The position numbers were made by a program, and so were the translations under genes. From IMG/VR virus record IMGVR_UViG_3300038465_000055, positions 1 through 64,000 of that record: a stretch of DNA of 64,000 nucleotides; one strand, written 5' to 3'. Below, one piece after another: positions 19,708 to 52,679 of this stretch. The notes under the pieces are model-generated. The model saw only the letters and a list, made by a program, of their open reading frames with translations. It had not been told where the DNA came from and made no database searches. Every line of letters starts with the position of its first letter. Position 1 is the first letter of the stretch. The DNA comes from a virus.

Positions 19708-22110
19708 TTATTGCCTCGTGGCAACATCTAACTGCATGACCCCGACACCTCCATTGTATCCAGTGCCAAAATTATTAGCATTTTCTTCTGTGGCTGAAAC
19801 AAAGTGAAACCCAGAGACCGCTGGATAGTTGGCAATTGAGATTGGGCTCGCAAAAAAAGAATTTGCAGTAGCCGTTTCCATCAGAGCACGAGCATCAAAA
19901 CAAGTCGTTCCGTCAAGGCATGTACCTGTGACAGAACCAGACCCCGCCGAAGCGGATGTAAATGCCTGCACCTGATAGCTTGCCGTAAAACCATTCAGGG
20001 GAAGTCCAACGACAAACGATGCCCTGTTATTGACTGAGTTGTCGGCCGCACGGACCGCGCTCGCTCCGGATTGCAACCATACACTCACAGTGTCGGTGAC
20101 CGTCGTTTTGACGTCGACTTGGTTGTACATATTCCAGACACCGAACATCGCAGCGCCGCCACCGCCTGCAGCGCTACCCCAAACATAACTTATCGAACCA
20201 TTTGCAATGGCATACACGGTGCCGAGATACGTGGCTTGGTTCGCAGCGACCGAACCATAGTTCGTCGATCCGTTGAAGCAATTCGCCAGCGCATTCTTGT
20301 TTGTTGGATATGGCCGCGTGATCTGATCGATGACGGTGTAGCCGGTGCCGCGCGACGTATTCGATCCTCCGGTATCGGCCGCCCAGCCGCCGCCGCCGCC
20401 GCCAGCAGTTGACATCGCCAAGCAAATCCTGTTGGCGCCACCATGCACCCACCAAACGTCATAGACCTGAGATCCGACGACCTGACCTGCGCTCGCCGCT
20501 GCGACCATCGCATCGATAACCTCGCATGAGGCGACCGTGTCGATCAGATCAAGCGTGCCATTGAAATACGGGACTCCGCCGCCCACCGCGCAATCATATC
20601 GCAGCGTCGTCTGGTTCGCGCACGACGACCCGCCGCAAGACGTTGCGAGCATGACCGGGGTATTAGCGGCCAGCGTGATGCGACCCTGCGGCGCGATGAC
20701 GGCGCCCGCAACCGTGCATGTTCCGGTGCTTGTAATGCTGCACGTTCCAGAGACAGCTATTCCAGATCCCGCCGCGATAATAACGTTGGTCACCGTTCCA
20801 GTGCCGCCCGCCGTCAGCCAAGCCGGCACGCCGGTCGGCCCTTCGGAAAATACCTGCGTGCCGCTATTGTTACCGGCCAGCGTCGTCCAGATGGTGCCGT
20901 TCCAGAAAGCGAAGTCGCCAACTCGAGTCGGAACAGGCATCAATGCCGTGATCGCAGCCGGCGCCCCGCTCTGACCCGTACCGCCATTTGCGATCGGCGC
21001 AATACCCGTCACGCCTCCGTTGCCGCTGGCGCCTAGATTTATCGCCGACAGCCACGAACCCGAGATCGTCCCAGAGTTGATGGCCGAGCCCGCGATCGAT
21101 GGCGTACCGCCGAGCGCATAAGTTCCGGTGATCGTGCCTGTGATCGCCGGCCCGGTGCCAAACGTGACAGTCGAATTGAATATAGCGCCGCCTGTGACAG
21201 CCAGAAAAAAACCGCCGATGGTCGCGCCGCCCAAAGCCAGCGACGTTCCCGCTGCCACACCGAGCGACGGCGTCGTCAAGGCCATATTGGTGGCGGCGAT
21301 CCCGCTGGGTAGCGTTGCGGAGAATGACGGAACGTTCGATCCGTTCGTCACCAACACCGAATTAGCAGCGAGCGCTGCCGCCGTCATGGTTCCACCGTTC
21401 GTCGAATTGTACGGAACGCCAGTGCCGCCGCTTATGGTCGTGGTTCCATAGGTGATGCCGGTAGCTGGCGCCACGATCGAGCACGTGCTTCCGAGGGCGC
21501 ATGGGATGCCGTTCACGGTCGTGAGGGCAACCGCTCCATTCACATAGTAGTTTCCGCTGACATTGATGGTGCCCGCGCCGGTCAGCGTTCCCATCGTCGT
21601 GCCGACCGTTACGCTGCCGTCTTGCTCGACCCCAAACCTGTCCGTCAACGTCGCGCTGCCATTCGGCGTAACGCCAAAGCGCAAATAGGTTCCATTCTGG
21701 CCCACGCTCCAATTCTGTGCCGCGTAGGTTCTGATCGCCGCCTGCGGGCCGACCACTCCGGTTCCGTTATAGCCGAACGCATTCAACGAACAGACTTCAT
21801 CCGCGGACTGCAACGTTGTCGGCGCCGCTTCCGTGCCATCCCAGCGCACGCAACTATAGCGCGGTACGCTAGCGTAGGCGTCCAGCTCCGTCCTTACCGT
21901 CGTTCCAGCAGCTCCGACAATCTGCAAACCGCTGCCAGCCAAAAAAGCCGGCGTCGTCTGCGAGGCGTTTAGATTGATGATCTGGGGAGAAAGAAACGTG
22001 TTGATCGCGGTCGTGAATGCGCAGTTGACGCACGAAGGCGGACTTGGCTGCGCCGCTGCACCGACAACAGAAACAGCCAGAGCGAATAGTGCCGCGATAA
22101 AACTGCGCAT
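19708..22110 (-). CDS. Tail fibre/spike-like protein with N-terminal signal peptide
   Basis: MRSFIAALFALAVSVVGAAA leader; G/T-rich fibre repeats (PIANGGTG, GTGTVT, PQGRITL, GVWNMYNQ); 16 Cys, mostly in local pairs. Confidence 0.8.
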   Translation of the reverse strand: MRSFIAALFALAVSVVGAAAQPSPPSCVNCAFTTAINTFLSPQIINLNASQTTPAFLAGSGLQIVGAAGTTVRTELDAYASVPRYSCVRWDGTEAAPTTLQSADEVCSLNAFGYNGTGVVGPQAAIRTYAAQNWSVGQNGTYLRFGVTPNGSATLTDRFGVEQDGSVTVGTTMGTLTGAGTINVSGNYYVNGAVALTTVNGIPCALGSTCSIVAPATGITYGTTTISGGTGVPYNSTNGGTMTAAALAANSVLVTNGSNVPSFSATLPSGIAATNMALTTPSLGVAAGTSLALGGATIGGFFLAVTGGAIFNSTVTFGTGPAITGTITGTYALGGTPSIAGSAINSGTISGSWLSAINLGASGNGGVTGIAPIANGGTGQSGAPAAITALMPVPTRVGDFAFWNGTIWTTLAGNNSGTQVFSEGPTGVPAWLTAGGTGTVTNVIIAAGSGIAVSGTCSITSTGTCTVAGAVIAPQGRITLAANTPVMLATSCGGSSCANQTTLRYDCAVGGGVPYFNGTLDLIDTVASCEVIDAMVAAASAGQVVGSQVYDVWWVHGGANRICLAMSTAGGGGGGWAADTGGSNTSRGTGYTVIDQITRPYPTNKNALANCFNGSTNYGSVAANQATYLGTVYAIANGSISYVWGSAAGGGGAAMFGVWNMYNQVDVKTTVTDTVSVWLQSGASAVRAADNSVNNRASFVVGLPLNGFTASYQVQAFTSASAGSGSVTGTCLDGTTCFDARALMETATANSFFASPISIANYPAVSGFHFVSATEENANNFGTGYNGGVGVMQLDVATRQ

Positions 22111-22121
22111 GTGATCTCTCT

Positions 22122-22430
22122 TCAAAACCAAACGACAGAAAATTTGTGACCGTTGGAAGCTGCGTTGACCGAGGTTATCGACGTTTGACCGGGAATGATG
22201 GGCCAACTCGCGCCGGGGTATAGCACGAAGGTTGTCCCGTTCCCCACCAAACCCGCCGGATTTACCGGATCGACATACAGATTTTCCGGCGCCCCGAGCC
22301 CCTGATCCGTTGCCGATATCGGATTGGTTATGAATCCGCCATTCGGGGCGCCGGGAATAACCTCGACGGGCGTCCCACCGTTTGTAACCACCGAGGTGAG
22401 ACCCGGTACCGGGGTGACTGCAACGGTCAT
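22122..22430 (-). CDS. Small beta-sandwich protein paralogous to the N-terminal domain of the 24639-25616 baseplate protein
   Basis: Shared GGxIxNP...DQG..PExL..D..NPA.L...TTF.L.PG...VNAA..GHKFS. Confidence 0.8.
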   Translation of the reverse strand: MTVAVTPVPGLTSVVTNGGTPVEVIPGAPNGGFITNPISATDQGLGAPENLYVDPVNPAGLVGNGTTFVLYPGASWPIIPGQTSITSVNAASNGHKFSVVWF

Positions 22431-29190: not shown

Positions 29191-29793
29191 TCAACCCTTC
29201 CATCGACGAAGGGCCGCCTCACTCATTCGTTTCCGAGTTTCCTCAGACCTCTTTCGGCCGACATTGATCGTGTTGCCTTTTTTGAAACAATTGTTCTCCG
29301 TCCTCGGTAGGGTATTGCCCACTCCTCCTCCTCCGCCGATCCTATTTGGCACCAATTCTCCAGATAGAAGCCTGCGAGTCATACGCTCGCTCAATACCCT
29401 CCTCGCTTCTGGGGAAGCGAATTGAGCCTTTGCTTTTCGACTAAGCTTGGCTCGAGTCTGCTCAGAAAAATTATGAGCACCACCACCGCCATCTGACCTA
29501 TTCCAAAGCGGCCCCTTTAATTTGTCAGCACGACCTATCTCATCGATCAAGCGGCGCTCGTTTTCGTAAGCCTCCTCTCTTGTGAGCCCACAAATTATCT
29601 TCTTGGGAACCACAGAAAGACCGCAGCCGATCGCATGAAGGATGCCAAGATTTTTTGAAGGGCTAATATTTTTCGCAAGCTCCCTAGCCGCATTTCTTAT
29701 GTGCATGTTCATGCGGTATCCGCTTCCCATTCCGATATATCTTGGGATGGGATCATCACCGACAAATAGGCCATAGACATAGAACTTGTTCAT
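29191..29793 (-). CDS. GIY-YIG-family homing endonuclease with NUMOD3-like tail
   Basis: FYVYGL..RYIGMG..R; LTREEAYENE; LWNRSDGG; GRKRSEETRKRMSEA. Confidence 0.85.
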   Translation of the reverse strand: MNKFYVYGLFVGDDPIPRYIGMGSGYRMNMHIRNAARELAKNISPSKNLGILHAIGCGLSVVPKKIICGLTREEAYENERRLIDEIGRADKLKGPLWNRSDGGGGAHNFSEQTRAKLSRKAKAQFASPEARRVLSERMTRRLLSGELVPNRIGGGGGVGNTLPRTENNCFKKGNTINVGRKRSEETRKRMSEAALRRWKG

Positions 29794-30281
29794 GGCGACA
29801 CTTCTATTTGATTGTTGGCGATACGGTACACCAGAGTCGAGTTGAAGTATCCAGCGGTCAGGCTGATGTTCTCGCTGGCGACGCCAAGCCTCGTCGCAGC
29901 TCCCGGATCGGCCATCAGCGGATAGGTGAATGTGTACCGGCCTGTGACATAGGCGAGCACCTGACCGTTGTAGGCGTCCGGCGTCGAGCCCGTGATCGTG
30001 AGCGCCACCGTACTGCCGATTCGGTATGGAATGGGATTCGCAAGCGTCCCTGTCACAAAACCATTGGCCCATGACAGCTCCGCAAGATTGGCCCCGTTCG
30101 GAGATCCCACCATTGCCTTGTTGACGATCAGCGTGCCGTCGAGACCTGCGATCGCGAGATAGTATCGCTGCGCCGCCATATTAAAGGTGACGGTCGCGTT
30201 GTAGACCTGACCGTCCAGCGTGGGCTGGAACGTATAGTTCGCGGTCGGTACCGGCGTGAAATCATAATAGGTGATGCTCAT
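29790..30281 (-). CDS. Baseplate plug-like protein with FCCH-like insert
   Basis: FQPTLDGQVYNATVTFNMAAQRYYL; NISLTAGYFNSTLVYR. Confidence 0.7.
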   Translation of the reverse strand: MSITYYDFTPVPTANYTFQPTLDGQVYNATVTFNMAAQRYYLAIAGLDGTLIVNKAMVGSPNGANLAELSWANGFVTGTLANPIPYRIGSTVALTITGSTPDAYNGQVLAYVTGRYTFTYPLMADPGAATRLGVASENISLTAGYFNSTLVYRIANNQIEVSP

Positions 30282-37298: not shown

Positions 37299-40200
37299 TC
37301 AGTGACCGCTGTTGAAACTCGACGTGCCATTATAATTTTGCCAGAACGGCGAAGTGAGCGGGTTGCAGAACAGACTAGTACACGAACTAAACCCCCATTG
37401 TTGCGAGAGAAGAAAATTCAAAGACGAAGGAGACCCCGAATTAGGCATCAAACCAAAGGTGACTTGATTGATGTCGGTCCCCATGAATCCCTTGTAGTAA
37501 TACTCCCATGTCACGGCGAATGACGGATCATTCTTATACCCGGTAAAAACTGCGTCATTGAAAGCGTTGGCCGCTCCTGTACTCGACGGATCAGAGAACG
37601 TGATGCCTTCTCCCGCGTTCGTTCCCGTGGCATTGCCAGATAGAATCACATAGTTGCCGGTGCATGTTGTAGGGCATCCGCTGTTGATCGACGAAACCGT
37701 CAGCCCCGAAATATCGCCCGCGGCAACCGTCATCCCTGTGTAATAGCCAAGAGCAGTCGAGAGACTGTCGACGACGGTGTTTGTGTGAGTCGACCCGGTA
37801 ATTCCAACCGTAGTGCCGATCTGGATCGGAGGCACCGCCGCAGCGAAGGTAGCTGCCGCATAAGGATTAACTTCAATGTCGCCTTCGTACCACCGCATCA
37901 AAACCGGACCCATCCCAGAAGGTCGAGGATTGGCTGCCGTCCCGCAACTCTGTTGAGTGGAGCTGCTGTAGCTACAGGCAAGAGTTTGCCAGAGCTGAAG
38001 ATTAGTCTGGACCGTGGAATTGTTGCCTTGCGTAAAAGTAAATGGCGTCGATGTGTATATCAGAGAGTTTAGCGACAACGTACCGGTGCCGGGCGTGCCG
38101 CAATTTACATCGCTGCCGTTTTGGATTCCGGCAGTGAACCCTTTCATGGTGAAGTTCCACGGCGAAGTGGTCAGCGCCGCCCCCGCGGATGTTGTGGCTG
38201 CACTTGTGACGTAGAGACCGGCCCCACCGGTCGTGCCCGAGGTCTGGCTGACGATCGTGGTGGTGATGGTGGACGGAACGCCTGTGCCAGCAACCGCAGC
38301 ACCTATCGCAATGGTGCCCGTGACGCCGGTTACGGTGAGGTTGGTTCCGCTGCCAGTCCCCGTGAAGCTGGCTGTGCCGGTGATGGTGTCCGTCGTATAG
38401 ACTTGGTTTCCTGCTAAACCACTTGGAAGCGTTCCACCGGGCGATGTGAACAGGAAGAAGTTGCCATTCCCTCCCGGCTCGTATGACGATGCGCCTGTCC
38501 CCGTCGTGAACGTGGTGCCGCTGCAAGTAAGTGCTTGGGGTGCTCTGCGCGGATAAGTCCCCCTCAGGTCTTGGTCGATGAGCGATATGGCGGCGGCTTC
38601 GCTGCCGTTGATCCAGTCGTTCACGACAGGTTGGAAAAACCAAGCTGATGCTAGCCCGAATCCAGAGCCTCCGACGTCCGACCCGTTCGTGATGTTGTTG
38701 CCGCCAACATATGGCGCACCTCCGATCGTGTTGATGTCGTCGATGGGGCGGTTAGGATAAACATTTCGTCCTGCTACTGAACACCCGCTGGTAAACGTTC
38801 CGCCAAAATGTACGCAAAGTGGAGCGTTCGTTGCTGTGCTTAGAAGTGACCCGCCCAGAGCCAAGATATAATCGCTGGAAGAAAGGGCGCAGCAGAATTG
38901 CCCCATCATGGCGGCTTCGTAACGAGAGCGATTTGAGCCACTAAATACGGACGAAAATGCAAGCGCTGTGTCCGAAGCCAGCACCGCCATGTAGTGCGTA
39001 TAATCGAGCGGAGAGCCGTTGGTTATATTGAGCCAGTTCTCACGCTGGATCGCCAGCCGCCATGGTTGATACGCCGGATTCCAGACCTCATTGCCATCTT
39101 CAGTAAGCACCTTGAGCGGCGCTTTCATCAAACTAAGAATAAGGGAGGCCGTTCTGGTCTTGTAAGTGTTGGTGGCCGTTATCGGAAGATTCAGCCAGAA
39201 GTTCGCGTCGGTCTGATTGGCAAGATTGATGAAATACTCATACGGCGCCATGCCCGGCGAGACGCCGCCGCCCTGTTCGATGACCCCGCCTAAAATGGCA
39301 TCGTAAGCAAACGTGGAGTAGCCGGTGCCGAGCTGGTTGGAATTTATTCCACCACAGTTGTCGTTGTAGCCCTGTCCTTCGCAGTTCAAGATGAACGCTT
39401 GAGCGCCGCCGGCCTTCGTGGAAACAACGATTGCAAATGGACTTATGTAGCCTAGGCAACCGGAACAGGCATGGACAAACGCTGTGTTGAAGGTGACGTG
39501 GTAGCCATCACTTGAGATGTTAGTTATTGTCTGGACGCCACCAGCCTCGGTGGTGCCGCTCGTCAATCCATTGACATAGAGCACATTTCCGACAATGGCG
39601 GCGGACACGTTGCCCGCGTAAAGCGCCTGCGCCGCAACAGTCTGCGAAACGCTGACAGCATAAGTTCCTGTGCCACCGGCCCCCGTGCAAGCAGGCGCAC
39701 AAGCAGATGAATTGGTCGTGGAGTTTCCGACAATCGTGGTGTTGGCCGCAACCGACGTTCCGGAGATAGAAAAGACCGTGTCTCCGAGCAGTACGGAGGC
39801 GCTGCCGCCCCCGTAGCTGTTGAAGGCGCTGACGGTCATCGTCGTACCAGAAATGCTGGCCGTCGTCATCTGGCTGTGCGCGATCGACGCCGAAACGCAC
39901 GGACCGCCGCCGCAGTTGGTCGTGCTGTCTCCGACCGCGTTGACTAGAGTCCATCCCGGCGTCGGTCCTGTGCCGGGATTTCCCATCACGGTGTCGCCAT
40001 CAGCCCATGCCCCTAGGCTCTGGTCGTTGGCGCTGTTGTTCATGTCGTCAGAAGGCGCGCAGGTAAAAATATATGGCGCCTGTCCTGACGAGCCAGCCGT
40101 GAGCGGACACGTCGGCGTAGTATTGCCCGCTCCTCCGGAACGAGCGCTCGGCACATTACGGCTGGTGAATGTGAGATGGAGGTCGGTGATCTGAGCACGA

Positions 40201-41096
40201 TAACCAAACGTCGTCATCTTGGTAGTGTCGGAAGCGCTTGATCCCATATTTCGGAGCCAGCCGAAGCCAGCTCCCTTTATGGCTGCTACAAATTCAGGAA
40301 CGAAGAACGAGCCGGAAGCCCCGCTGGTTGACATCGCAAGCGCGTATTGGGAGCAATCATCGTTCGGCGCGCCGCCGTTATTGGTGCTCCGACAAAGTAT
40401 CCACTCGCCGCTGCCCGGCGCAAAAGCATAACCCGTCGGATAAAGAATGGAGAGACCGAAGCACTGCGACGTGCATTGAAACACTGCCGTGCCAGCCGTG
40501 CTGCCGTTGCACTTGAAATTCTGGTTGCTGCTGGTGAACGTGCCCGGTGTGCCGGAACCGCTGAGCGTCATTCCACCCGTGAAAGACGACACCACAAATG
40601 TCGGCGTGGTCGTATTGCCGAAAACTATCGACATGAACGGACGTGTCGCGGCGCACGACAGCGTATAGGTTGAGTTTAACCACAGACCATTAGTCTGCGA
40701 ACCAATCTGCTGCGTCAGCGTCGTAATCGGATATTGGCTACCATCGACGTCGATGGAAGTATTGTTGTTTGTTGCTTGGTTTCCCCTCAGGGCATTTGTG
40801 TAAGTGATCGGCGTAAGATCCGCGCCGACACTGAGCATTACTTGGGAAATGCCGGCGGGTGGCGATAAGGGCGCTGAACCATGACGATAGCCGACCGGCA
40901 GAAAGCGAGACTCACCTTGGCCGAAAAATTTAACGGCTCCCGACAACGAAGCCTTCTGCTCAATGATTAGATGCTGGATCTGAATCGAGTAGGCCAGAAG
41001 ATTATTGCGCTGCGGATTGACCGGCATCGCAAAGGAAGTCGTCGTCGCCAGTGCGACTACCACACCAGCCAGAGCTGATAAAAATCTTTTGAACAT
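37299..41096 (-). CDS. Large exported glycoside-hydrolase-like (clan GH-A-type) protein with inserted beta domains
   Basis: Signal peptide MFKRFLSALAGVVVALATTTSFA; WLRNMG, FINLANQTDANFWLNLP, EDGNEVWN, WYEG; about 28 Cys. Confidence 0.7.
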   Translation of the reverse strand: MFKRFLSALAGVVVALATTTSFAMPVNPQRNNLLAYSIQIQHLIIEQKASLSGAVKFFGQGESRFLPVGYRHGSAPLSPPAGISQVMLSVGADLTPITYTNALRGNQATNNNTSIDVDGSQYPITTLTQQIGSQTNGLWLNSTYTLSCAATRPFMSIVFGNTTTPTFVVSSFTGGMTLSGSGTPGTFTSSNQNFKCNGSTAGTAVFQCTSQCFGLSILYPTGYAFAPGSGEWILCRSTNNGGAPNDDCSQYALAMSTSGASGSFFVPEFVAAIKGAGFGWLRNMGSSASDTTKMTTFGYRAQITDLHLTFTSRNVPSARSGGAGNTTPTCPLTAGSSGQAPYIFTCAPSDDMNNSANDQSLGAWADGDTVMGNPGTGPTPGWTLVNAVGDSTTNCGGGPCVSASIAHSQMTTASISGTTMTVSAFNSYGGGSASVLLGDTVFSISGTSVAANTTIVGNSTTNSSACAPACTGAGGTGTYAVSVSQTVAAQALYAGNVSAAIVGNVLYVNGLTSGTTEAGGVQTITNISSDGYHVTFNTAFVHACSGCLGYISPFAIVVSTKAGGAQAFILNCEGQGYNDNCGGINSNQLGTGYSTFAYDAILGGVIEQGGGVSPGMAPYEYFINLANQTDANFWLNLPITATNTYKTRTASLILSLMKAPLKVLTEDGNEVWNPAYQPWRLAIQRENWLNITNGSPLDYTHYMAVLASDTALAFSSVFSGSNRSRYEAAMMGQFCCALSSSDYILALGGSLLSTATNAPLCVHFGGTFTSGCSVAGRNVYPNRPIDDINTIGGAPYVGGNNITNGSDVGGSGFGLASAWFFQPVVNDWINGSEAAAISLIDQDLRGTYPRRAPQALTCSGTTFTTGTGASSYEPGGNGNFFLFTSPGGTLPSGLAGNQVYTTDTITGTASFTGTGSGTNLTVTGVTGTIAIGAAVAGTGVPSTITTTIVSQTSGTTGGAGLYVTSAATTSAGAALTTSPWNFTMKGFTAGIQNGSDVNCGTPGTGTLSLNSLIYTSTPFTFTQGNNSTVQTNLQLWQTLACSYSSSTQQSCGTAANPRPSGMGPVLMRWYEGDIEVNPYAAATFAAAVPPIQIGTTVGITGSTHTNTVVDSLSTALGYYTGMTVAAGDISGLTVSSINSGCPTTCTGNYVILSGNATGTNAGEGITFSDPSSTGAANAFNDAVFTGYKNDPSFAVTWEYYYKGFMGTDINQVTFGLMPNSGSPSSLNFLLSQQWGFSSCTSLFCNPLTSPFWQNYNGTSSFNSGH

Positions 41097-41102
41097 TTTT
41101 TA

Positions 41103-41903
41103 TTAAGTTCCTGGATACCAGTATGCCCACGGATTTTCGGACCACTTCAACAGAGTGTTGAACGACAGCATGTTGCCAAAATTAAAACTATACATATACG
41201 CAGCGATGTGACCCGGAAACGCTGCCACTGCCGCAGTGTGGTTGCCTATGTTGAAGGTGCCGTCACCTGCCGAGGCTCCGACGCTGGCCAATGCAGCCTG
41301 TGTGGCCACTACTTTTCCCGTCGCCAGATTGCGAATGATTCCGTCAATTGAATTTGCACCGTTGGCATAGTTACTGAAGGCCGCAAAGTAAGGCACCCCA
41401 ACCGCAAGCGCATAGCCAGCAGTCGGAAACGCTCCGGCGGTTTCCGGAAATAAAACAGGAGCAGTACTTACAAGCAAAGAGTTGCTCGTATTTGCATTTG
41501 CCGTGCTGTGGAGAGCAGCCGTGACTGTTGGGATGCTGTCCATGACGAAAATGCAACCATACGTAAAACCACCGATCGGATTCCTTGCCGAGAAACCGGA
41601 AAACTCGATCTGATCCGTGCTGGCGCCGTTGAACTTGACGCTTGGACCGATCACCGGGTCTAGAAATCCAGTCGGAGCACCAATGATCGTTCCCGGTTTG
41701 CCACCTAGAAGGTTTGTGAAATTCCCGCCTAAATTGGCCACCGCCGATATCCACGGCTGTCCAGAAACAGGATGACTCTGATTCATCCCCGGAGCCACCC
41801 CAGCCGGAAACGCAAACGGCGGCCTTTGAGCTGCAAACAGTTTGCGCGACGGCAACAGGAGGGCTGGGGCAGCAACTTGGATAAGACGACGGCGCGACAG
41901 CAT
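41103..41903 (-). CDS. LamG/concanavalin-like protein with twin-arginine-type leader
   Basis: MLSRRRLIQVAAPALLLP; FTYGCIF, FNIGN..FPGHIAAY; ends ENPWAYW. Confidence 0.7.
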   Translation of the reverse strand: MLSRRRLIQVAAPALLLPSRKLFAAQRPPFAFPAGVAPGMNQSHPVSGQPWISAVANLGGNFTNLLGGKPGTIIGAPTGFLDPVIGPSVKFNGASTDQIEFSGFSARNPIGGFTYGCIFVMDSIPTVTAALHSTANANTSNSLLVSTAPVLFPETAGAFPTAGYALAVGVPYFAAFSNYANGANSIDGIIRNLATGKVVATQAALASVGASAGDGTFNIGNHTAAVAAFPGHIAAYMYSFNFGNMLSFNTLLKWSENPWAYWYPGT

Positions 41904-42548
41904 TTAGTTTTGTCCTGCAATCGGAGCTAACTTTATCAAATTTCCGGTCCCGCCCAGCGCAGCGCCACAGTTATTTTGGGTCATCACCTTGAACTGAAGT
42001 GCAGGAACGTTAATCGGCCCCGGCGCTTTATAGGTGTTGGTGCTGATCGCAGCAGTGGGAAGAAAAATTATAGCATCTGGAGAGCGGACCATTTGCGCTG
42101 CTGTGGCAGTCTCGAACGTTGTTCCGTCTCCGGTTTGAAGAAACCAGATCGAGATGTTGCCGCCCGCCGTGCACGTCGCGGTGGCGCCAGAGGTGAAGAA
42201 GATTTCACCGAGTTGTGCGCCGCCTGTGTTTGAATTGTTGAACAGTCCAGAGGTGCCACCAACCGAACTGACGGCAACCGCACCATTGGCTAGCGCGTTC
42301 AATTCTATCGATTCCAGCGTCAGCAGCGCCGAGTAAAGACCATTGTTCGACGAGCCGAGATACCATTTGTGCGGCCCTGCATTCGGCGCGCAGTTTCCGT
42401 CATCTCCGGTTTGCGTGCTCATACCGACCGAGGACGGCACGTTGTTGTTGATCGAGATCGGATTGGTGCACGCCGCCAGCGCTGGCGCGGCGAACGCGAT
42501 CAGCCAAAGCACGACTGCTGTTAGTGGTGCTGCGAGACGCTTGATCAT
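41904..42548 (-). CDS. Exported beta-sandwich protein
   Basis: MIKRLAAPLTAVVLWLIAFAAPALA leader; 4 Cys. Confidence 0.75.
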   Translation of the reverse strand: MIKRLAAPLTAVVLWLIAFAAPALAACTNPISINNNVPSSVGMSTQTGDDGNCAPNAGPHKWYLGSSNNGLYSALLTLESIELNALANGAVAVSSVGGTSGLFNNSNTGGAQLGEIFFTSGATATCTAGGNISIWFLQTGDGTTFETATAAQMVRSPDAIIFLPTAAISTNTYKAPGPINVPALQFKVMTQNNCGAALGGTGNLIKLAPIAGQN

Positions 42549-42560
42549 AGTGATCGCTCC

Positions 42561-42746
42561 TTACCGGAAGATGAGAGAGAAATATTGACTGTTGCAGGCT
42601 TGCGAAAAATCCAGCTCGTTCGAGCACGAGTTCCCGCCACCACTGCCGGCGCCGAGCAGCATGATGCTTGCCGCGCGCGACTGATCGCCGCGAACCGAGC
42701 ACGACGCGATCGCGATGAGAACGAGAATGATAATGCGCTTCTTCAC
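42561..42746 (-). CDS. Small exported/lipoprotein-like peptide ending LDFSQACNSQYFSLIFR
   Basis: GTG start with GAGGAG; MKKRIIILVLIAIAS-C lipobox-like. Confidence 0.7.
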   Translation of the reverse strand: MKKRIIILVLIAIASCSVRGDQSRAASIMLLGAGSGGGNSCSNELDFSQACNSQYFSLIFR

Positions 42747-42757
42747 GTATCCACTCC

Positions 42758-45700
42758 TCAGAATTGCATGTAGCTGATCGAACCGGCGACAGCCACCGCT
42801 GCCGTTGTAATGGCGCACAGCGCGTTTCCTGACGGCACCTTCAAGATCGTCCCCACACCGCCGCCTTTCGTAAGACCCGGATTGGACGTGCTCAGAGAAT
42901 ATGCCCCGCTAAGTGTGCCCTGCCCTGTAGCGCAAGCCGTTCCAGTTCCGTAAATCCATTGGAACGTGTCCACACCCGCGGCCATGAAATCTTCCGACGT
43001 GACATAGATCGACGTCGAGCCCGACAGCGCGACGATCTGGGTTGTAGTCGCCGTCGAGATGCTGATCGGCGCAGACAGGCTGTCCTGCGACAAAGTCTGG
43101 CGCCCCACGCCAGTTCCGGTCTGACCTTGGCCGGTTGCCGTAGCCGTTCCAGCCGTCTGGGCATTGTTGGTCTGCACCACAACGCTGGGCGCCGAGCCCG
43201 CCAGCGTCGCGGTATCGGTGGCAACGGTGACTCGAGGAACTGTGGCTCCCTGCGCTCCGGTACCGGTGGCCACCGCGGCGTTGCCGACCATCAGGTTGGC
43301 AAAGAGACCGTTCGTGGCACTCAGGACCGCGTTGCCTTGCAGGAGGTTGGAGAAGATGCCGTTGGTCGCTGACAAGGCCGAGCCGCCTTGCGTGAGACCA
43401 GCCGTCCACGTGCCCGATTGCGTGGCTGCAACCGTGCCTGTGATCGTGGTCGACGTCAGCGTCACGGCAAGACCGGAGACACCCGCCGCAACCAGCAATT
43501 CACCGCGCGAACTGAATAGCAGCGCAGCCTGTTGCGTGTTCGTCATTGTCGGCTGCGCCGAAAGATACTGACCGCCGACCGTGAGCGCGCTGGTCGACGC
43601 CGCCGTCGCCGCATTGAGCGGACCCGTAACCTGCGGGATCGGCCCCTTGATATCGTCGTCAAGCTGGCCGAGACAGCCGATGATGGTATTCCCTGCAACC
43701 GAGCAGGTATGCGCCGAGGTGATCGTTCCCTCGACGACGTTGGCGCCGTTGGCGAGCGAGCCCGCTGCGAACGCACCGGACGCGAACGCGCCCGACGCAT
43801 AGGCGCCCGAAGCGATCGAGCCCGACGCATAGGCGCCGCTCGCCACCGCACCGGACACCATCGTGACAGCACCGCCCCCACCGCCCACCTTGACGTTGAC
43901 TAGCAGGTTGCCCGCGGCATCCATCTGGAACGGCGAGAAGTTCCCGGACGTGATCGTGGCCGGCGTCGTGTTGAACTGGCCACCGACTAGAACTGAGCTG
44001 AATGTGCCCGTCGCGTTCTGGCCAGCGAAATCGAGCAGCGCGCCGGCATTGCCGACGATCCGATCGCTCCACGTGCCAGATTGCGTGACTGGAATGGCGC
44101 TCTGGTTGCTGGCGATCGCAACCGAGACGCTATTGGCCATCGTGACTTGGCCGTTTGGATTGACGCTATTCGGCGAGATCGATACGACGATCGCCGTGTC
44201 GGTAGCCAACGGCGGCGTGCTCCCGAGCTTGATTGCCGCCCCGACGACGTTCTGACCAGCCGCGCCCGTGACTGTACCGCCGAACACGACCGGGGGATTG
44301 GCGTTCGCAACGCCCACTGCCGTGGGACCAAAGACCGCCCCCCCGCCGCCGCCGCCGCCGGTGCATCCAGAGATACAAGCGACATTCAGGGCATTCGTGG
44401 TCGAGGCTATGACGTTCCCGGAGCCGTCGACGATCTGGGTTTTTGCCGCGCCGCTGGTTTGCAAGGTGGCCGTGGCCGCGCCCGTGGGAAGGCTGATAGT
44501 TCCTGTGATGTTGTTGATGTTGTTCGTGGCGCCGGTGAGCTGGACGCCAAAGGTACCCGTTCCGACGACGGTCGCATTGAGGGCCGCCGCCGTGGCCTGC
44601 GTCACAGCGAACGAGCTGTTGCCGATCGAACCGCCGGCCTGAAATGGCGTTCCAAGCGCTGCTATGATAGTCGCCTGATTGGCCGCCGTGCCGGCTCCCC
44701 CCAAGGTGCCAAGGTTGACCGTAGGCGTTGCCGCGAAGGCAGGGAGCGTCCCCAAGATGCCAAAGGCCGTATTGGCGATGCTGCCACCGGCTTGGAACGG
44801 CGTGCCCAGCGCCGTCTGGATCGCCGCCAGCGTGGTCTGTGTCGCGACCCCCGCGATGGTCCCCAGATTGACGGTTGGCGTCGCAGCAAACGCAGGCAGC
44901 GTGCCCGTGATGCCAAACCCGGTATTGGTGATCGAGCCGATCGCGTTGGTGCCCGCAGCGAGCCCAATCGACCAAGCGCCAGACTGCGCGGCCGGGAATG
45001 TGCCGCCAGCGCCGGTAACAAGCAGCGCCGAGCCGTTCGAACCGGTATTGGCGAGAGAGACCTGAAGCGGGGCCGCCGATACGCCGACTTCCGCTCCCGC
45101 CGCGTTGCGCAGGTTCATCATGACAGCGCGGAATTCCGTCAACTGCACCATGCCCTGATCGCCAGCCGTCAGGGGATTTGCCGTCACCGTCGTCTGATAG
45201 AAACCGCCCGCGCCAGCGAACAGCGAAGCGCCGGCCGCGAACAGCGCACCATCCGCCGTGCTCACGCCCGAACCCGAGCAGTTCGAGCACTGGATATTCA
45301 GGTTGCCGCCGGTACCGGTGAGCGGAACAAGATTGCCGCCCTGCAACATACCGACGTAGGTGGCCGAGCCCGGCGCCAGCGTGGCCACCGCTCCAACGGA
45401 CGCATTCGGAGCCGCGCCGCAGCCCGTGCCGCAATTGAATGTCGGGGTGGCCGCAAATGCCGGGAGCGTGCCGCCGAGACTGACAGTGCCGCTGACCGGT
45501 TGCGTTACCGCAGATCCGTCGACCATGAGGCCATTGGCGGTCGCGACCAATCCCGTCAGGACGCCGCCGACGCTGGCGCCGAGATAGGTGGCAGAGGCCG
45601 GCACCGCGATCGAGGTGAGCGCAACCGACGCATTCGATCCGTTGCAACCGCTGACGCAATTGACATTCGGCGTGCCCGCAACCGAGACAGGAAGGGTGAC

Positions 45701-46126
45701 CGAAGCCTTGATGCTTACCCATTCTCCATTGGTGACGTCGCCGAGCTGCGGCTGAAAATTACCCGACACATCCTTGAAGCCGCCCGGCGTGCCGAAATTT
45801 CCGATCGGGCTTGCGAAGGTGGCCGAGACGCCAGTGCCGCTGCAATTCGAGCATGTGATGCTGCCGGTGACTGCAAACGTAGCTCCCGCGCCGGGCGAGA
45901 CAAAGATCGGATTGGCCGACACACCCATCGGGTTGCCAGTCTGATCCTGAATGACGTTAGCCGCGCATATGACGCTGTTCGAGCAATTGAACCCATGCAG
46001 TTGGCGCGGGATCTTGTAGGCGTCGAGGAACGAATAATTAGGGAACGTGGCCTGTTGAGCCAGAGCTGGGGAAAGGCCAACGAGCGACAGCGACCAGATC
46101 GCCAATGCCAAGAGAGCTTTTTTCAT
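42758..46126 (-). CDS. Large exported fibre-like protein (repeat-rich shaft, C-terminal beta-sandwich)
   Basis: MKKALLALAIWSLSLVGLSPALA leader; GTLPAFAATPT x3, ALGTPFQAGGSI x2, SGAYA pentapeptides; 16 Cys. Confidence 0.85.
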   Translation of the reverse strand: MKKALLALAIWSLSLVGLSPALAQQATFPNYSFLDAYKIPRQLHGFNCSNSVICAANVIQDQTGNPMGVSANPIFVSPGAGATFAVTGSITCSNCSGTGVSATFASPIGNFGTPGGFKDVSGNFQPQLGDVTNGEWVSIKASVTLPVSVAGTPNVNCVSGCNGSNASVALTSIAVPASATYLGASVGGVLTGLVATANGLMVDGSAVTQPVSGTVSLGGTLPAFAATPTFNCGTGCGAAPNASVGAVATLAPGSATYVGMLQGGNLVPLTGTGGNLNIQCSNCSGSGVSTADGALFAAGASLFAGAGGFYQTTVTANPLTAGDQGMVQLTEFRAVMMNLRNAAGAEVGVSAAPLQVSLANTGSNGSALLVTGAGGTFPAAQSGAWSIGLAAGTNAIGSITNTGFGITGTLPAFAATPTVNLGTIAGVATQTTLAAIQTALGTPFQAGGSIANTAFGILGTLPAFAATPTVNLGTLGGAGTAANQATIIAALGTPFQAGGSIGNSSFAVTQATAAALNATVVGTGTFGVQLTGATNNINNITGTISLPTGAATATLQTSGAAKTQIVDGSGNVIASTTNALNVACISGCTGGGGGGGAVFGPTAVGVANANPPVVFGGTVTGAAGQNVVGAAIKLGSTPPLATDTAIVVSISPNSVNPNGQVTMANSVSVAIASNQSAIPVTQSGTWSDRIVGNAGALLDFAGQNATGTFSSVLVGGQFNTTPATITSGNFSPFQMDAAGNLLVNVKVGGGGGAVTMVSGAVASGAYASGSIASGAYASGAFASGAFAAGSLANGANVVEGTITSAHTCSVAGNTIIGCLGQLDDDIKGPIPQVTGPLNAATAASTSALTVGGQYLSAQPTMTNTQQAALLFSSRGELLVAAGVSGLAVTLTSTTITGTVAATQSGTWTAGLTQGGSALSATNGIFSNLLQGNAVLSATNGLFANLMVGNAAVATGTGAQGATVPRVTVATDTATLAGSAPSVVVQTNNAQTAGTATATGQGQTGTGVGRQTLSQDSLSAPISISTATTTQIVALSGSTSIYVTSEDFMAAGVDTFQWIYGTGTACATGQGTLSGAYSLSTSNPGLTKGGGVGTILKVPSGNALCAITTAAVAVAGSISYMQF
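43751..43860 (-). repeat. 15-bp/pentapeptide tandem repeat (SGAVA-SGAYA-SGSIA-SGAYA-SGAFA-SGAFA-AGSLA)
   Basis: Seen in translation and in DNA (CCCGACGCATAGGCG repeated). Confidence 0.85.
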
Positions 46127-46151
46127 CGCTCGAATTCCCCAAAGGAAAGTG

Positions 46152-46592
46152 TCAGCCGCCGATCAGCGGTATGTACTGCGAATTTTCTGCATCCGAAAAA
46201 TCAAGGTCAGGATCTTCTTCGCCTCGTATCCGCAGGTAAACGATTTCCACGAAGATACGGCCCTGCGCCGTCGTCGCATTGTTCATCAGAGCATACACTG
46301 ATCCGATTGCTCCGACCGACAACCAGACGGAAACAAACGGATTATTTATTGCCTTGTTACCTATCACCAAACCTTCATCCGGAGGTTCGATCTGATCCCA
46401 CGTCGAAGTCACGATCGTGTCGCCCGCCGCCGCCGGTGGCACAGCAAGCCGTATCGAATAATCGATACCGAAGTCGAGTTTTTCGATCGAATTCTTTGCT
46501 GGCCATTCAAGCAGTTGGCGCCCGCGACCGGGGGTAACGATTCGCGAAAATCCTGCCGGCAGAATAACCCGCTGTGAATTAACGCCGACCAT
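46152..46592 (-). CDS. Phage fibre-adaptor-like protein ending LDFSDAENSQYIPLIGG
   Basis: WPAK..EKLDFGIDYS..GDTIVTSTW..VSVWLSVG..TTAQGR. Confidence 0.7.
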   Translation of the reverse strand: MVGVNSQRVILPAGFSRIVTPGRGRQLLEWPAKNSIEKLDFGIDYSIRLAVPPAAAGDTIVTSTWDQIEPPDEGLVIGNKAINNPFVSVWLSVGAIGSVYALMNNATTAQGRIFVEIVYLRIRGEEDPDLDFSDAENSQYIPLIGG

Positions 46593-46605: not shown

Positions 46606-46920
46606 CTATTTATAATATGACACGTTGAGGACAGCGGTTGCCGACTGCTGGATGAATTGCAGCGCGGCCAGATTGGCGAGGGGAATCGGCGCAGCTCCAG
46701 CCGTGATCTGCATCCCGATCGTCGCAGTTGGCGCTGTCCCGTCATCGCGATAATTCACATTTGCGCCCGTGCACATCACCAAGGCATAGGTCGCGCCCGC
46801 CGGCACTGTAAACGCCGCCGCCACTGTCAATGCCGTGATCTGCTGGAATCCCAACGGCTTGCCTGACGGGATGATCGTGACCGGCGTCGACGCACCAGCC
46901 TGCACAAGTTGGTTTGCCAT
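46606..46920 (-). CDS. Small beta-sandwich virion protein
   Basis: PLGFQQI..VPAGATYAL..VNYRDDGTAPTATIGM..LNVSYY. Confidence 0.75.
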   Translation of the reverse strand: MANQLVQAGASTPVTIIPSGKPLGFQQITALTVAAAFTVPAGATYALVMCTGANVNYRDDGTAPTATIGMQITAGAAPIPLANLAALQFIQQSATAVLNVSYYK

Positions 46921-50675: not shown

Positions 50676-52679
50676 TTAGTGTTGGGTCGGCATGCGGGTA
50701 CCGATGAAGTTGACGTTGCGGTGTGGGCGCGACATCTGCGCGAAGATCGTGCCCTTGCCGACGAACCGTGTGATCTTGTGGCCGCCCGGTGCGGTTTCCT
50801 TGATCTCGCGATGCTGGAATGGCTGCGCATCTGTCGGGTCCATCGCCGCCTTGAAGGCGTCTGCCCGAATGCCGTCGAGCGCGATCGTGAAGCCCTTGGC
50901 ATCGGCAGCGATCACCGCCAGATCGACATCCTTCCACGTTTTTGAGTGGGGCTGAAGCTTGCGGGCAAGCCGAATGTTGTAGGCGACAATATCCTCGCCG
51001 GACATCGGCGGATCTGCGCTGTCATTCATGGCGCGCAGCACGACGTCGGCTTTCGCCTGTGCATCTGCGAAGGCATCGCGATCGGCCTGCGTCATCTTGC
51101 GCGGCTGCATCGAGGTGACCATCGCCTGAAGCTTTTCGAATTCAGAGCGAGGAACGCTGTCAGCCTTGGCTGCATCAGCCTTCTCTTTCTCTTTTTCCTT
51201 GTCCTCGGCATCCTTCTTGGCAGCATCAGCCTTTTCTTTTTCCTTCTCTTTTTCCTCAGCGTCCTTGCGCTTCTTGTCGGCTGCCGTCTCCTCGGCTCCC
51301 TCGCCGTCTTTCTTGGCGCCGTCCTTCTTGGCCGCGTCTTTCTTCTTCTCCTCCTCCTCCTTTTCGGAATCGGACTTGGCGGCGTCCTTTTTCTTTTCTT
51401 CTTCCTTCTCTGCGTCGCGCTTCGCCGAGTCGGACTTCACCGCGTCCATCACAGCATCGTACTTCGAATCCATTTTCTGACAGTGCGAGGCCATGTCCTG
51501 ACGGAGACCATCCGCCATCTTCTTGAACGAATCCATGATGGCGTCCATCACACCATTTGCGTGCGAACCAACACCGGCCTCATCAGCAGCCTTCTTATCG
51601 GCATCCGCCTTCTTCTCTGCTTCGGTTTTTTCGGCCACGCTGGAATCTCCTCTGATGATGTGATCGCTGCTAATTCCGGCGGGCTCCCCGCCTTTGTCCC
51701 AAACACCCTGCTGGCAGATCGCGACATGATCTAGCAAACCGGGGTCGCCTTCAATGAGTAACAAGCTCTTGTCGGGAAGTGCTACGGACTGATTTACACT
51801 GAGTTTCGTGAAAACAACAGTGGGACTTGTGGACAGCACGCCTTTTTCCATCTCGGCGTTGGCCTCGTCGTCATAGATCTTGGCCACCGCCCAGACTTCA
51901 TCTTCGTCGATGTAGGGCACAAAAACGGTGCCGACGATCCGCTTGGCGAACTCTTTTGACGTCAGCTTCGCCTTAGCCGGGTGCAGCCAGATAACCGGCA
52001 GCCCGTTGCATCGATCGAGGAAATCCTGATTGAGATAGTGCTCTGGCGGCCGATAGACGTGCTCGTCATAGACGATCGTCTTGCCGTCGTCGTCCTTTCG
52101 CTTCTGCGCCTTGCGGAATGACCGGCCCGTACCCGTGATCCGCATCGTCCACATCGTCATGTTGATGTAGCGCTGCGGCGACATTAGCTCGCCCGCGGCC
52201 ATCGCGCGCGCGATCCCCAGCTCATTCATCGTCAGCTTGTCGAGCGCGATCTGACAGCCGGGATGCAGCGGTTGCGGCGCGTCGCCGATCGACGACCACA
52301 CGAAGCCGTCATGCTCCTCATTCAGCTTAGGTGTGAACTGGACCGGGACGCGGACAAGGAACGTCGTGAAATCAACCATAGGCGGAGGCGGCAGCTCGAC
52401 CACGTCAGGAACAAGCGACGCCGGCTTTTCAGCTACATCCTCCAACACCGGCTTGATGCGCCTTGCGTGCAGACGCAGCGCCGCTGGCTTTACCTTGTAT
52501 CCGGTCTCCTCCTCGACCTCGCGGATTGCCGCACCATCGGCGTCCTCGCCATCCTCGATTTTTCCACCGGGAAACGCCCAACGGCCGATCTGGTCGCCGT
52601 CAGCGCGGCGCAGGAATAAGGCTTTGCCCTCGGGATCGAGGAACAGGATGCCGGCGGCGCGAATCACATTATCGGTCAT
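50676..52679 (-). CDS. Nudix hydrolase - prohead protease (DUF2213-like) - scaffold fusion
   Basis: Nudix box GGKIEDGEDADGAAIREVEEETGY; RCNGLPVIWLHP, STSP, LDHVAIC..GVWDK; K/E/D/A-rich scaffold. Confidence 0.85.
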   Translation of the reverse strand: MTDNVIRAAGILFLDPEGKALFLRRADGDQIGRWAFPGGKIEDGEDADGAAIREVEEETGYKVKPAALRLHARRIKPVLEDVAEKPASLVPDVVELPPPPMVDFTTFLVRVPVQFTPKLNEEHDGFVWSSIGDAPQPLHPGCQIALDKLTMNELGIARAMAAGELMSPQRYINMTMWTMRITGTGRSFRKAQKRKDDDGKTIVYDEHVYRPPEHYLNQDFLDRCNGLPVIWLHPAKAKLTSKEFAKRIVGTVFVPYIDEDEVWAVAKIYDDEANAEMEKGVLSTSPTVVFTKLSVNQSVALPDKSLLLIEGDPGLLDHVAICQQGVWDKGGEPAGISSDHIIRGDSSVAEKTEAEKKADADKKAADEAGVGSHANGVMDAIMDSFKKMADGLRQDMASHCQKMDSKYDAVMDAVKSDSAKRDAEKEEEKKKDAAKSDSEKEEEEKKKDAAKKDGAKKDGEGAEETAADKKRKDAEEKEKEKEKADAAKKDAEDKEKEKEKADAAKADSVPRSEFEKLQAMVTSMQPRKMTQADRDAFADAQAKADVVLRAMNDSADPPMSGEDIVAYNIRLARKLQPHSKTWKDVDLAVIAADAKGFTIALDGIRADAFKAAMDPTDAQPFQHREIKETAPGGHKITRFVGKGTIFAQMSRPHRNVNFIGTRMPTQH

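Follow-up and report, generated by a model that had tools for sequence, protein, structure and literature searches.

We analysed a 64,000-nucleotide stretch of a viral genome (positions 1 to 64,000 of IMG/VR record IMGVR_UViG_3300038465_000055, hereafter the window; the whole genome is 74.7 kb), focusing on a group of minus-strand genes in the neck-gene region of what is a contractile-tailed phage. These genes encode a Gp77-type fibre-tail adaptor, a giant fibre, a small lipobox peptide and a knob protein. Their features are collected in Table 1, where loci retrieved for comparison are designated by L numbers and P0114 is a distant adaptor homologue.

Table 1. Features of the locus, with the observations on which each assignment rests
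Position (strand)	Feature	Supporting observations
46606..46920 (-)	104-aa conserved neck-region protein just upstream of the module	In L044 its homologue carries a signal peptide and directly precedes the tag peptide
46152..46592 (-)	146-aa fibre-tail adaptor: Gp77 domain (residues 33-120), then an acidic linker GEEDPD and the C-terminal tag	Pfam PF23148 at E 2.4e-15 and 57.2 bits against a cut-off of 27; PDB 8JOU_D (GP4 gp77) at E 0.002; about 197 homologues end near residue 123 and have no tail
46155..46205 (-)	Tag copy 1: LDFSDAENSQYIPLIGG (L130-G146), no Cys	P0114 carries the same tag
42758..46126 (-)	1122-aa fibre with a signal peptide (residues 1-23, ALA|QQ); mature N-terminus of partner type (NYSFLDAY...FNCSNSVIC); 16 Cys	N-terminus homologous to the proteins downstream of tags in L097, L147 and L094 (E 2e-5 to 1e-4 in a small database); internal blocks shared with the L044 555-aa fibre
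42561..42746 (-)	61-aa exported mini-adaptor (export inferred from sequence): n-region KKR, hydrophobic core, lipobox LIAIAS-C16, Gly-rich linker, then tag copy 2	GAGGAG Shine-Dalgarno at 42759-42754, 7 nt before the GTG start; homologue in L044 (41% identity); 16 unique Cys-flanked tags of the same build; lipobox read from the sequence without a predictor
42564..42614 (-)	Tag copy 2: LDFSQACNSQYFSLIFR (L45-R61), flanked by Cys41 and Cys51 around LDFSQA	
41904..42548 (-)	214-aa exported protein (export inferred from sequence): signal peptide (residues 1-26), Cys-loop partner-type N-terminus (ACTNPISINN...), predicted CBM6/TNF-like jelly-roll knob (residues 72-212)	N-terminus homologous to the L107 partner at E 6e-8; AF2 pLDDT 75-92 for residues 72-212 and below 50 for 21-71; VIA gives Z 8.6 to CBM6; homologues exist with and without a signal peptide

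The adaptor and the 61-aa peptide both end in LDFSxAxNSQYxxLI, and the shared ending reported in the preliminary description is therefore confirmed. The motif occurs exactly twice in all six frames of the window and of the whole genome, and eight fixed residues found twice in 128,000 codon positions cannot be chance. Codon by codon, the two copies differ at most synonymous sites (CTT/CTG, GCA/GCC, AAT/AAC, TCG/AGT, CAG/CAA, TAC/TAT, CTG/CTC), and a repeat search reported no DNA repeat there, so the conservation is at the level of the peptide and not of the DNA, and selection acts on the peptide. In one respect the earlier account needs correction: the two proteins do not simply flank the giant gene, as each lies immediately upstream of its own fibre-type gene (1122 aa and 214 aa).

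Distribution of the motif and of its downstream neighbours

To determine whether the motif is private to this phage, we ran two DNA-pattern scans of IMG/VR, which gave 95 hits. Of these, 78 are in frame within 10 residues of a stop, 15 are one antisense artefact and 2 are random. The artefact group (LSVLDFSLSPNSQYTPSG) is antisense to a real 244-aa gene and was removed from the counts; an overlapping-ORF filter helped to confirm this, although it proved unreliable as a general filter in GC-rich DNA. In contrast, the same pattern in 596 Gb of bacterial genomes gave 58 hits scattered along ORFs, of which only 2 were real tags, both with a partner gene downstream. Defined as [LMF]DFSxxxNSQY plus 2-11 residues (mostly 4-6) and then a stop, behind a Pro/Gly-rich linker, the tag is found in 72 unique contexts (about 5 of them from the antisense artefact group), and both window copies fit this definition. 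Because the D, F, S, N, S, Q and Y positions were fixed by our search pattern, their invariance is partly by construction.

The carriers, many of them from uncultured phages, belong to unrelated virion families: tail terminator, tube (L103, whose cultured homologues end before the tag), head closure, Dit, J-like, Mu gp48/baseplate wedge, Pam3 gp18, Hoc-like and Gp77, the last including a second adaptor, as well as mini-peptides of 37-85 aa. Of about 197 Gp77 homologues, only the window protein and P0114 carry the tail. Tags flanked by two Cys, as in the 61-aa peptide, form a recurring subclass with 16 unique examples, most on small signal-peptide peptides. The lipobox, however, is peculiar to this phage, as homologous peptides carry ordinary signal peptides.

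The gene downstream of the tag often begins with a second motif, [ILV]x[IV]KD[AG]xG, which sits at Met1-5 or right after a signal-peptide cleavage site. Among unique adjacent downstream genes, 34 of 57 start with this partner motif, compared to 47 of 4399 background ORFs (1.1%; binomial p about 4e-52, not corrected for relatedness), and about 10 more carry it right after an AxA signal-peptide cleavage site. Not all carriers follow this trend: the baseplate-type ones in L089, L111, L160, L169 and L178 are followed by the next baseplate gene and not by a partner-type gene. A reciprocal scan starting from the partner motif gave 10 loci, 5 with canonical tags, 2 with variants (AFNxxxNSQY and LDFSxxCDSQY), 1 possibly divergent and 2 unrelated. 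Some partners fall in PHROG tail-fibre families, and one carries an RcGTA spike-base domain. Both window partners match this class by homology, although both are degenerate relative to the consensus.

Signal-peptide partners carry about four times more Cys than the others (1.94 versus 0.46 per 100 aa, p 1e-6), and in 12 of 12 the number of mature Cys is even, so export looks real on sequence evidence. Co-occurrence of the motif with signal-peptide fibres, which had been predicted beforehand, also holds.

Several searches returned little or nothing. A word-index homologue search with the adaptor found only the protein itself, and searches for related loci with the adaptor and with P0114 found nothing in viral contigs. 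Among 80 related loci (capsid relatives), none has a Gp77 adaptor, only L044 has the peptide, and none has a cytoplasmic-type partner motif. PDB sequence searches with the partner N-terminus and with the 214-aa protein gave nothing significant. We also considered whether the tag might be the first strand of a split LamG domain, but the partners have no LamG or other Pfam match.

A proposed tag and socket for accessory fibres

We favor, with moderate confidence, a reading in which the motif, LDFSxxxNSQY followed by 4-6 mostly hydrophobic residues at a free C-terminus behind a Pro/Gly-rich linker, is a portable docking tag, and the socket is the extreme mature N-terminus of the protein encoded immediately downstream. 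That N-terminus has the consensus M(A)(D/N)N-[ILV]-x-[IV]-K-D-[AG]-x-G-xxxx-[IV], which reads like a beta-hairpin. In this view, the tag-coding 3' end and the fibre gene would move together as a cassette that can be grafted onto any exposed C-terminus in a virion. The window would hold two such cassettes: in the first, the Gp77-type adaptor holds the 1122-aa fibre, and in the second, the exported, probably lipidated mini-adaptor holds the 214-aa glycan-binding-type knob protein. What our sequence comparisons establish is the motif, its C-terminal restriction, the diversity of its carriers, its coupling to the downstream N-terminal motif and the homology of both window partners to that class, whereas physical contact and binding, stoichiometry, expression, export, and where and when docking happens are inferences from these data.

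AF2 leaves the N-terminus of the 214-aa protein disordered as a monomer, as expected for a region that folds on binding. On the other hand, an AF2 run on a natural in-frame read-through fusion (the L090 carrier, stop and partner), judged without coordinates or PAE, gave only pTM 0.24 and predicted part of the tag as a helix. Moreover, tag and partner are less than 60 nt apart, so their co-occurrence could reflect linkage alone, and in the window the adaptor is cytoplasmic while its presumed partner has a signal peptide.

The interpretation offered in the preliminary description is only partly supported. Its proposal of a docking peptide remains the best reading, and the two-Cys loop it pointed to is real as a recurring subclass. 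Its further suggestions, that the membrane-tethered copy chaperones the 1122-aa fibre until the adaptor displaces it, or that it links successive subunits, are not supported. In the hand-over version, the exported peptide would cap or chaperone the exported 1122-aa fibre in the periplasm, and the virion-borne adaptor tag would displace it at or after lysis. While this would fit the presence of two exported sockets (1122 and 214) but only one exported tag, the separation of adaptor tag and fibre in different compartments before lysis, and the occurrence in L044 and L094 of exported Cys-flanked tag peptides preceding fibres with a 1122-like N-terminus, it seems unlikely given that everywhere else the tag gene directly precedes its own partner. 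The peptide and a 214-like N-terminus also travel together as a unit in L107 and L146, and L097, L147, L154 and L164 pair a cytoplasmic tag with an exported partner with no exported peptide in the stretch examined. The more economical pairing is therefore peptide to 214 and adaptor to 1122.

It is also conceivable, though somewhat less likely still, that the tag is read by a third party, such as a common assembly chaperone, a protease or ligase, or a host factor, without touching the downstream protein, in which case the conserved neighbor would reflect cassette inheritance only. The polar conserved core (D, S, N, S, Q, Y) and the need for a free C-terminus do resemble recognition or processing signals, and contact between tag and partner is so far only inferred. 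However, no third gene recurs in the loci, and the partner motif sits at the free mature N-terminus in both the cytoplasmic and the exported classes, which is hard to explain unless the two ends meet.

Two other possibilities are very unlikely. That the second copy is a decaying relic of a recombination or duplication that inserted the giant gene, with the 61-aa ORF not a gene, could be suggested by the way the copies bracket the 1122-aa gene as direct repeats would, but it is at odds with the absence of a DNA-level repeat, the diverged synonymous codons (including TCG versus AGT), the strong Shine-Dalgarno, the intact signal peptide, the homologous exported peptide in L044 and the other Cys-flanked tags of the same build. 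That the 61-aa lipoprotein is an o-spanin-like or Llp-like envelope protein for lysis or receptor masking with an incidental tag resemblance would be in keeping with its lipobox, small mature part and Cys residues, as in Rz1 and T5 Llp, and with the small signal-peptide coiled-coil proteins resembling i-spanins that follow the peptide in L044, L094, L109 and L147, but its neighbors in the window are the 1122-aa fibre and the 214-aa protein and not an i-spanin gene or lysis cassette, its homologues lack a lipobox, and its tag is identical in build to 70 or more virion tags.

It is tempting to go one step further and suggest, tentatively and as something less likely than not, that a class of accessory fibres is exported by Sec, oxidised in the periplasm, and joins cytoplasmically built virions only when lysis merges the two compartments, snapping onto a universal C-terminal tag displayed by virion proteins. 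Exported mini-peptides with a disulfide-looped copy of the tag would then act as periplasmic anchors or placeholders. Five independent loci (the window, L097, L147, L154 with a baseplate wedge, and L164) pair a cytoplasmic virion protein bearing the tag with a signal-peptide, Cys-paired partner. This subclass raises a question with no textbook answer, namely how virions assembled in the cytoplasm acquire parts that fold in the periplasm.

If the tag and the fibre N-terminus do bind each other, this would be a natural and widely shared plug-and-socket that phages of all three tail types would use to bolt extra fibres onto neck, tube, baseplate, tail tip or head. It would explain how host-range modules move between unrelated virion scaffolds, give annotators a rule for spotting fibres and their attachment points in metagenomic phages, and offer a compact handle of about 17 residues for studying fibre attachment.

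Relation to described attachment systems

We found no prior description of this arrangement, and a literature search for the motif together with phage returned nothing relevant. The closest system for the adaptor is gp77 of the Ralstonia podophage GP4 (PF23148; PDB 8JOU chain D) and its Bcep22/BcepIL02-type homologues. As in BcepIL02 and UAM5, the adaptor gene in the window directly precedes the fibre genes. Typical members, however, are 90-100 aa and end with the domain, whereas this one has an added 24-residue linker and tag and sits in a myophage neck module, and the fibres next to BcepIL02 gp57 start with a different N-terminus.

In the chain-like fibres of GP4, VP1 and A1002, small fibre dimers are strung on a rope or fiber-dock segment by beta-sheet augmentation (PMC13730344). 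Similar to our proposal, that system is modular and adaptor-linked, and an extended peptide from one protein serves as the docking site for a separately encoded fibre unit. There, the dock is an internal, repeated segment of a rope or nozzle protein that binds dimers, while here we find one tag per carrier, always C-terminal, with a different sequence and on many carrier families. In a fold search with the 214-aa protein, the best matches were CBM6/TNF-like jelly rolls, and no fibre chain of entry 8JOU was listed.

In the anchor-branch receptor-binding-protein systems of SP6/K1-5-like and Klebsiella phages, a conserved N-terminal peptide of the second spike reportedly docks on an adaptor or branching domain (Leiman 2007; Latka 2019). 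These share with our loci a conserved N-terminal docking element on interchangeable fibres or spikes and cassette-like swapping, but they use folded adaptor domains within one phage lineage, whereas the virion-side element here is a peptide of about 17 residues shared across myo-, sipho- and podo-type carriers. By analogy only, and without homology, a short terminal peptide also completes or latches onto a partner domain in chaperone-usher donor strands and SpyTag/SpyCatcher. An obligatory isopeptide bond is unlikely in our case, as the Lys in the partner's KD is not invariant (L or R also occur).

Tractable relatives are the Limnoglobus roseus PX52 prophage (L225) and Microcystis phage Mwe-JY08. 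Among cultured phages, L091-type carriers have no match. The only isolate lead is Microcystis phage Mwe-JY08, which has a partner N-terminus and a divergent upstream 45-aa ORF.

Composition of the locus

The genes of the module are encoded in the order listed below, and they sit among the neck genes of a genome that is a complete 74.7-kb IMG/VR record. The phage is contractile-tailed, and its sheath, baseplate hub and portal genes were identified. The 146-aa protein matches Pfam PF23148, the fibre-tail adaptor gp77 of podophage GP4, over residues 33-120, and it also matches PDB 8JOU chain D. Residues 124-146 lie beyond the domain.

Features of the window and of two loci from the comparison
Sequence	Position	Strand	Length	Feature
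Window	46606-46920	minus	104 aa	Conserved neck-region protein just upstream of the module
Window	46152-46592	minus	146 aa	Gp77-type adaptor with C-terminal tag
Window	42758-46126	minus	1122 aa	Protein with a signal peptide
Window	42561-42746	minus	61 aa	Small ORF with signal peptide and C-terminal tag
Window	41904-42548	minus	214 aa	Protein with a signal peptide (p214)
Window	41103-41903	minus	266 aa	Protein with a twin-arginine-like signal (SRRRLIQ) and a LamG-like start (VKFNGASTDQIEFSG)
Window	37299-41096	minus	1265 aa	Protein with a signal peptide
Window	19708-22206		832 aa	Second signal-peptide fibre, near the baseplate genes
Window	29191-30072			Homing-endonuclease-like ORF (phrog_314) among the tail and baseplate genes
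Window	50676-52679		667 aa	Head-module protein with a NUDIX-like N-terminal stretch and a weak match to a head-maturation protease
L044	13200-13574			Small signal-peptide protein with coiled-coil character, downstream of the tag ORF
L087	7943-8044			Spurious small ORF, a false positive of the pattern scan

The preliminary description held that the adaptor and the 61-aa peptide end in a shared motif, and this observation is correct: both proteins end as described, and the motif occurs only twice in six frames of the window and of the genome. The two coding stretches differ at nearly every synonymous position, including TCG versus AGT for one Ser, and no DNA repeat was detected there, so it is the peptide that is conserved and not the DNA. 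For the small ORF we prefer the 61-aa reading to the 85-aa one, given that GAGGAG lies 7 nt before the GTG start and that the signal peptide begins at that start.

A C-terminal tag on unrelated virion proteins

In the adaptor, the tail is an add-on. A full HMMER scan of 1.8 billion representatives found about 197 Gp77-domain proteins, nearly all of which are 90-100 aa long and end at query residue 123 or so; BcepIL02 gp57 and the Mwe-JY26 homologue show the same. Only one other protein carries the tail, a 158-aa homologue (P0114) that is 36% identical and ends ALDFSEDGNSQYLALI behind a Pro-rich linker.

To determine how widespread the motif is, we back-translated xDFSxxxNSQY into two DNA patterns and scanned IMG/VR, which gave 63 + 32 = 95 loci (loci from this and the other searches are numbered with the prefix L). 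Of these hits, 93 are in frame and within 10 residues of a stop. Fifteen of the 93 form one group (LSVLDFSLSPNSQYTPSG; locus L087 and 14 similar loci), which we showed to be antisense to a real, conserved 244-aa gene and discarded, leaving 78 tags. Before this artefact group was removed we counted 72 unique contexts, about 5 of which belong to it. After the Tyr come 2-11 residues, mostly 4-6, typically [IL]-[PG]-[LA]-[IL], and before the Leu comes a Pro/Gly/Ser-rich stretch. Because D, F, S, N, S, Q and Y were fixed by the pattern, their invariance is partly by construction.

As a control, one of these patterns (the TCN/TCN version) was run against 596 Gb of bacterial genomes, where it gave 58 hits spread all along ORFs. 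Only two of these are real tags, in a Rhodospirillales MAG (L182) and in the Limnoglobus roseus PX52 chromosome (L225), and they are the only two bacterial-genome hits with a true tag plus partner. L225 is from a sequenced strain and may be a tractable prophage.

Pfam and PHROG scans of 35 carriers showed that the tag is borne by unrelated virion proteins: a tail terminator (L110), a tail tube (L103), a head closure or completion protein (L151), a distal tail protein (L150), a J-like tail protein, a Mu gp48/baseplate wedge protein (L154), a Pam3 gp18 plug, Hoc-like and Ig domains (L122), and the Gp77 adaptor. For the tube protein, 387 cultured homologues align only up to residue 309-314 or so, before the tag. 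Many carriers are peptides of only 37-85 aa, with or without a signal peptide.

The downstream N-terminal motif and the two window partners

The gene starting within 40 nt after the tag ORF begins M(A)(D/N)N-[ILV]-x-[IV]-[KLR]-D-[AGS]-x-G-xxxx-[IV] in 34 of 57 unique cases, compared to a background of 47 of 4399 ORFs in the same loci, a test that is not corrected for relatedness. In about ten further cases the same motif follows an AxA signal-peptide cleavage site, as in L097 (ARA, then DYVIKDGNG) and L154 (AMA, then DYIIRDGNG). These partners have no Pfam family, although a few fall in PHROG tail-fibre families and one carries an RcGTA spike-base domain.

A reciprocal scan started from the partner motif returned 10 loci. 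Five have a canonical tag upstream, two have a variant tag (AFNSQSNSQYLTTI; LDFSFACDSQYLIL), one has a possibly divergent tag, and two have an unrelated protein. One cultured phage, Microcystis phage Mwe-JY08, has MPDNITVKDANGENQ at the start of a fibre-like gene, and the ORF before it is 45 aa long and ends in a divergent sequence.

Both partners in the window fit this pattern. The N-terminus of the 1122-aa protein aligns with the partners of L097, L147 and L094 across the signal peptide and the region DYVIKDGNG...FTC..C. The N-terminus of p214 aligns with the L107 partner (ACTNPLSIKDGTG...), and L107 also has a 61-aa Cys-flanked tag peptide just upstream. AF2 predicts p214 residues 72-212 as a confident jelly roll and leaves residues 21-71 unstructured. 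The predicted knob resembles CBM6, TNF-like and fibre-head domains (Z 8.6, rmsd 2.8 Å over 109 residues), a range of Z that is suggestive rather than proof, and it also aligns with the exported PBSX protein XepA (6i56, Z 8.0), another phage-encoded secreted jelly-roll protein.

Homologues of p214 exist both without a signal peptide (starting MATNFLxAPGTNG) and with one placed in front of the same residues, so the signal peptide is an add-on. In a MAFFT alignment, the N-termini of p214 homologues P0158-P0166 (MATNFLxAPGTNGFI...) were placed onto the tag (SNELDFSQACNSQYF...), which could be due to a cis-encoded tag-like strand or to an alignment artefact.

Inferred docking and export

We read the tag and the partner N-terminus as two halves of a docking interface, in which a free C-terminal peptide on a flexible linker would bind the free N-terminal hairpin of the fibre. 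A documented analogue is the beta-sheet augmentation that fixes fibre dimers onto the rope or fiber-dock segment in GP4, VP1 and A1002 (PMC13730344). While the tag, its carriers and the motif that follows it were read directly from the sequences, contact between the two halves is inferred, as the AF2 fusion test was not decisive; export and the moment of docking are likewise inferred. We found no description of this tag in the papers, Pfam, NCBIfam or PDB searched.

The tag-coding end and the fibre gene appear to travel together. The same tag subtype (...NSQYIGQV[VI]) with the same partner subtype (MAQVPxxxVKDA...) sits on the tube protein of L103, and the same tag subtype sits on the head-closure protein of L151, whose downstream gene was not recovered. 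L090 and L125 carry the same tag and partner subtypes on carriers without an assignment.

The interpretation in the preliminary description is supported in part. Its proposal of a docking peptide is the best reading, but its further suggestion that the exported copy may hold or chaperone the fibre until the virion-borne copy displaces it remains conjectural, and is less economical than a pairing of one tag with one downstream partner.

Signal-peptide partners hold 1.94 Cys per 100 aa, against 0.46 in the others (p 1e-6), and all 12 have an even number of Cys once the signal peptide is removed, which argues for real export and disulfide bonding. Nevertheless, five loci (the window, L097, L147, L154 and L164) pair a cytoplasmic tagged protein with an apparently exported partner, and in three of them the carrier has a virion-protein assignment. 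The simplest reading is that docking occurs at or after lysis, a possibility that we keep separate from the docking interpretation itself and offer only tentatively.

With the 266-aa and 1265-aa proteins, the window has five consecutive products in a neck module that are exported, as judged from their signals. In L044, L094, L109 and L147, a small (85-124 aa) protein with a signal peptide and coiled-coil character sits between the tag carrier and the exported fibre; it is reminiscent of an i-spanin or of a periplasmic assembly factor, and the window has no such gene. The 832-aa fibre has a signal peptide but neither a tag nor a partner motif, so it must dock in some other way.
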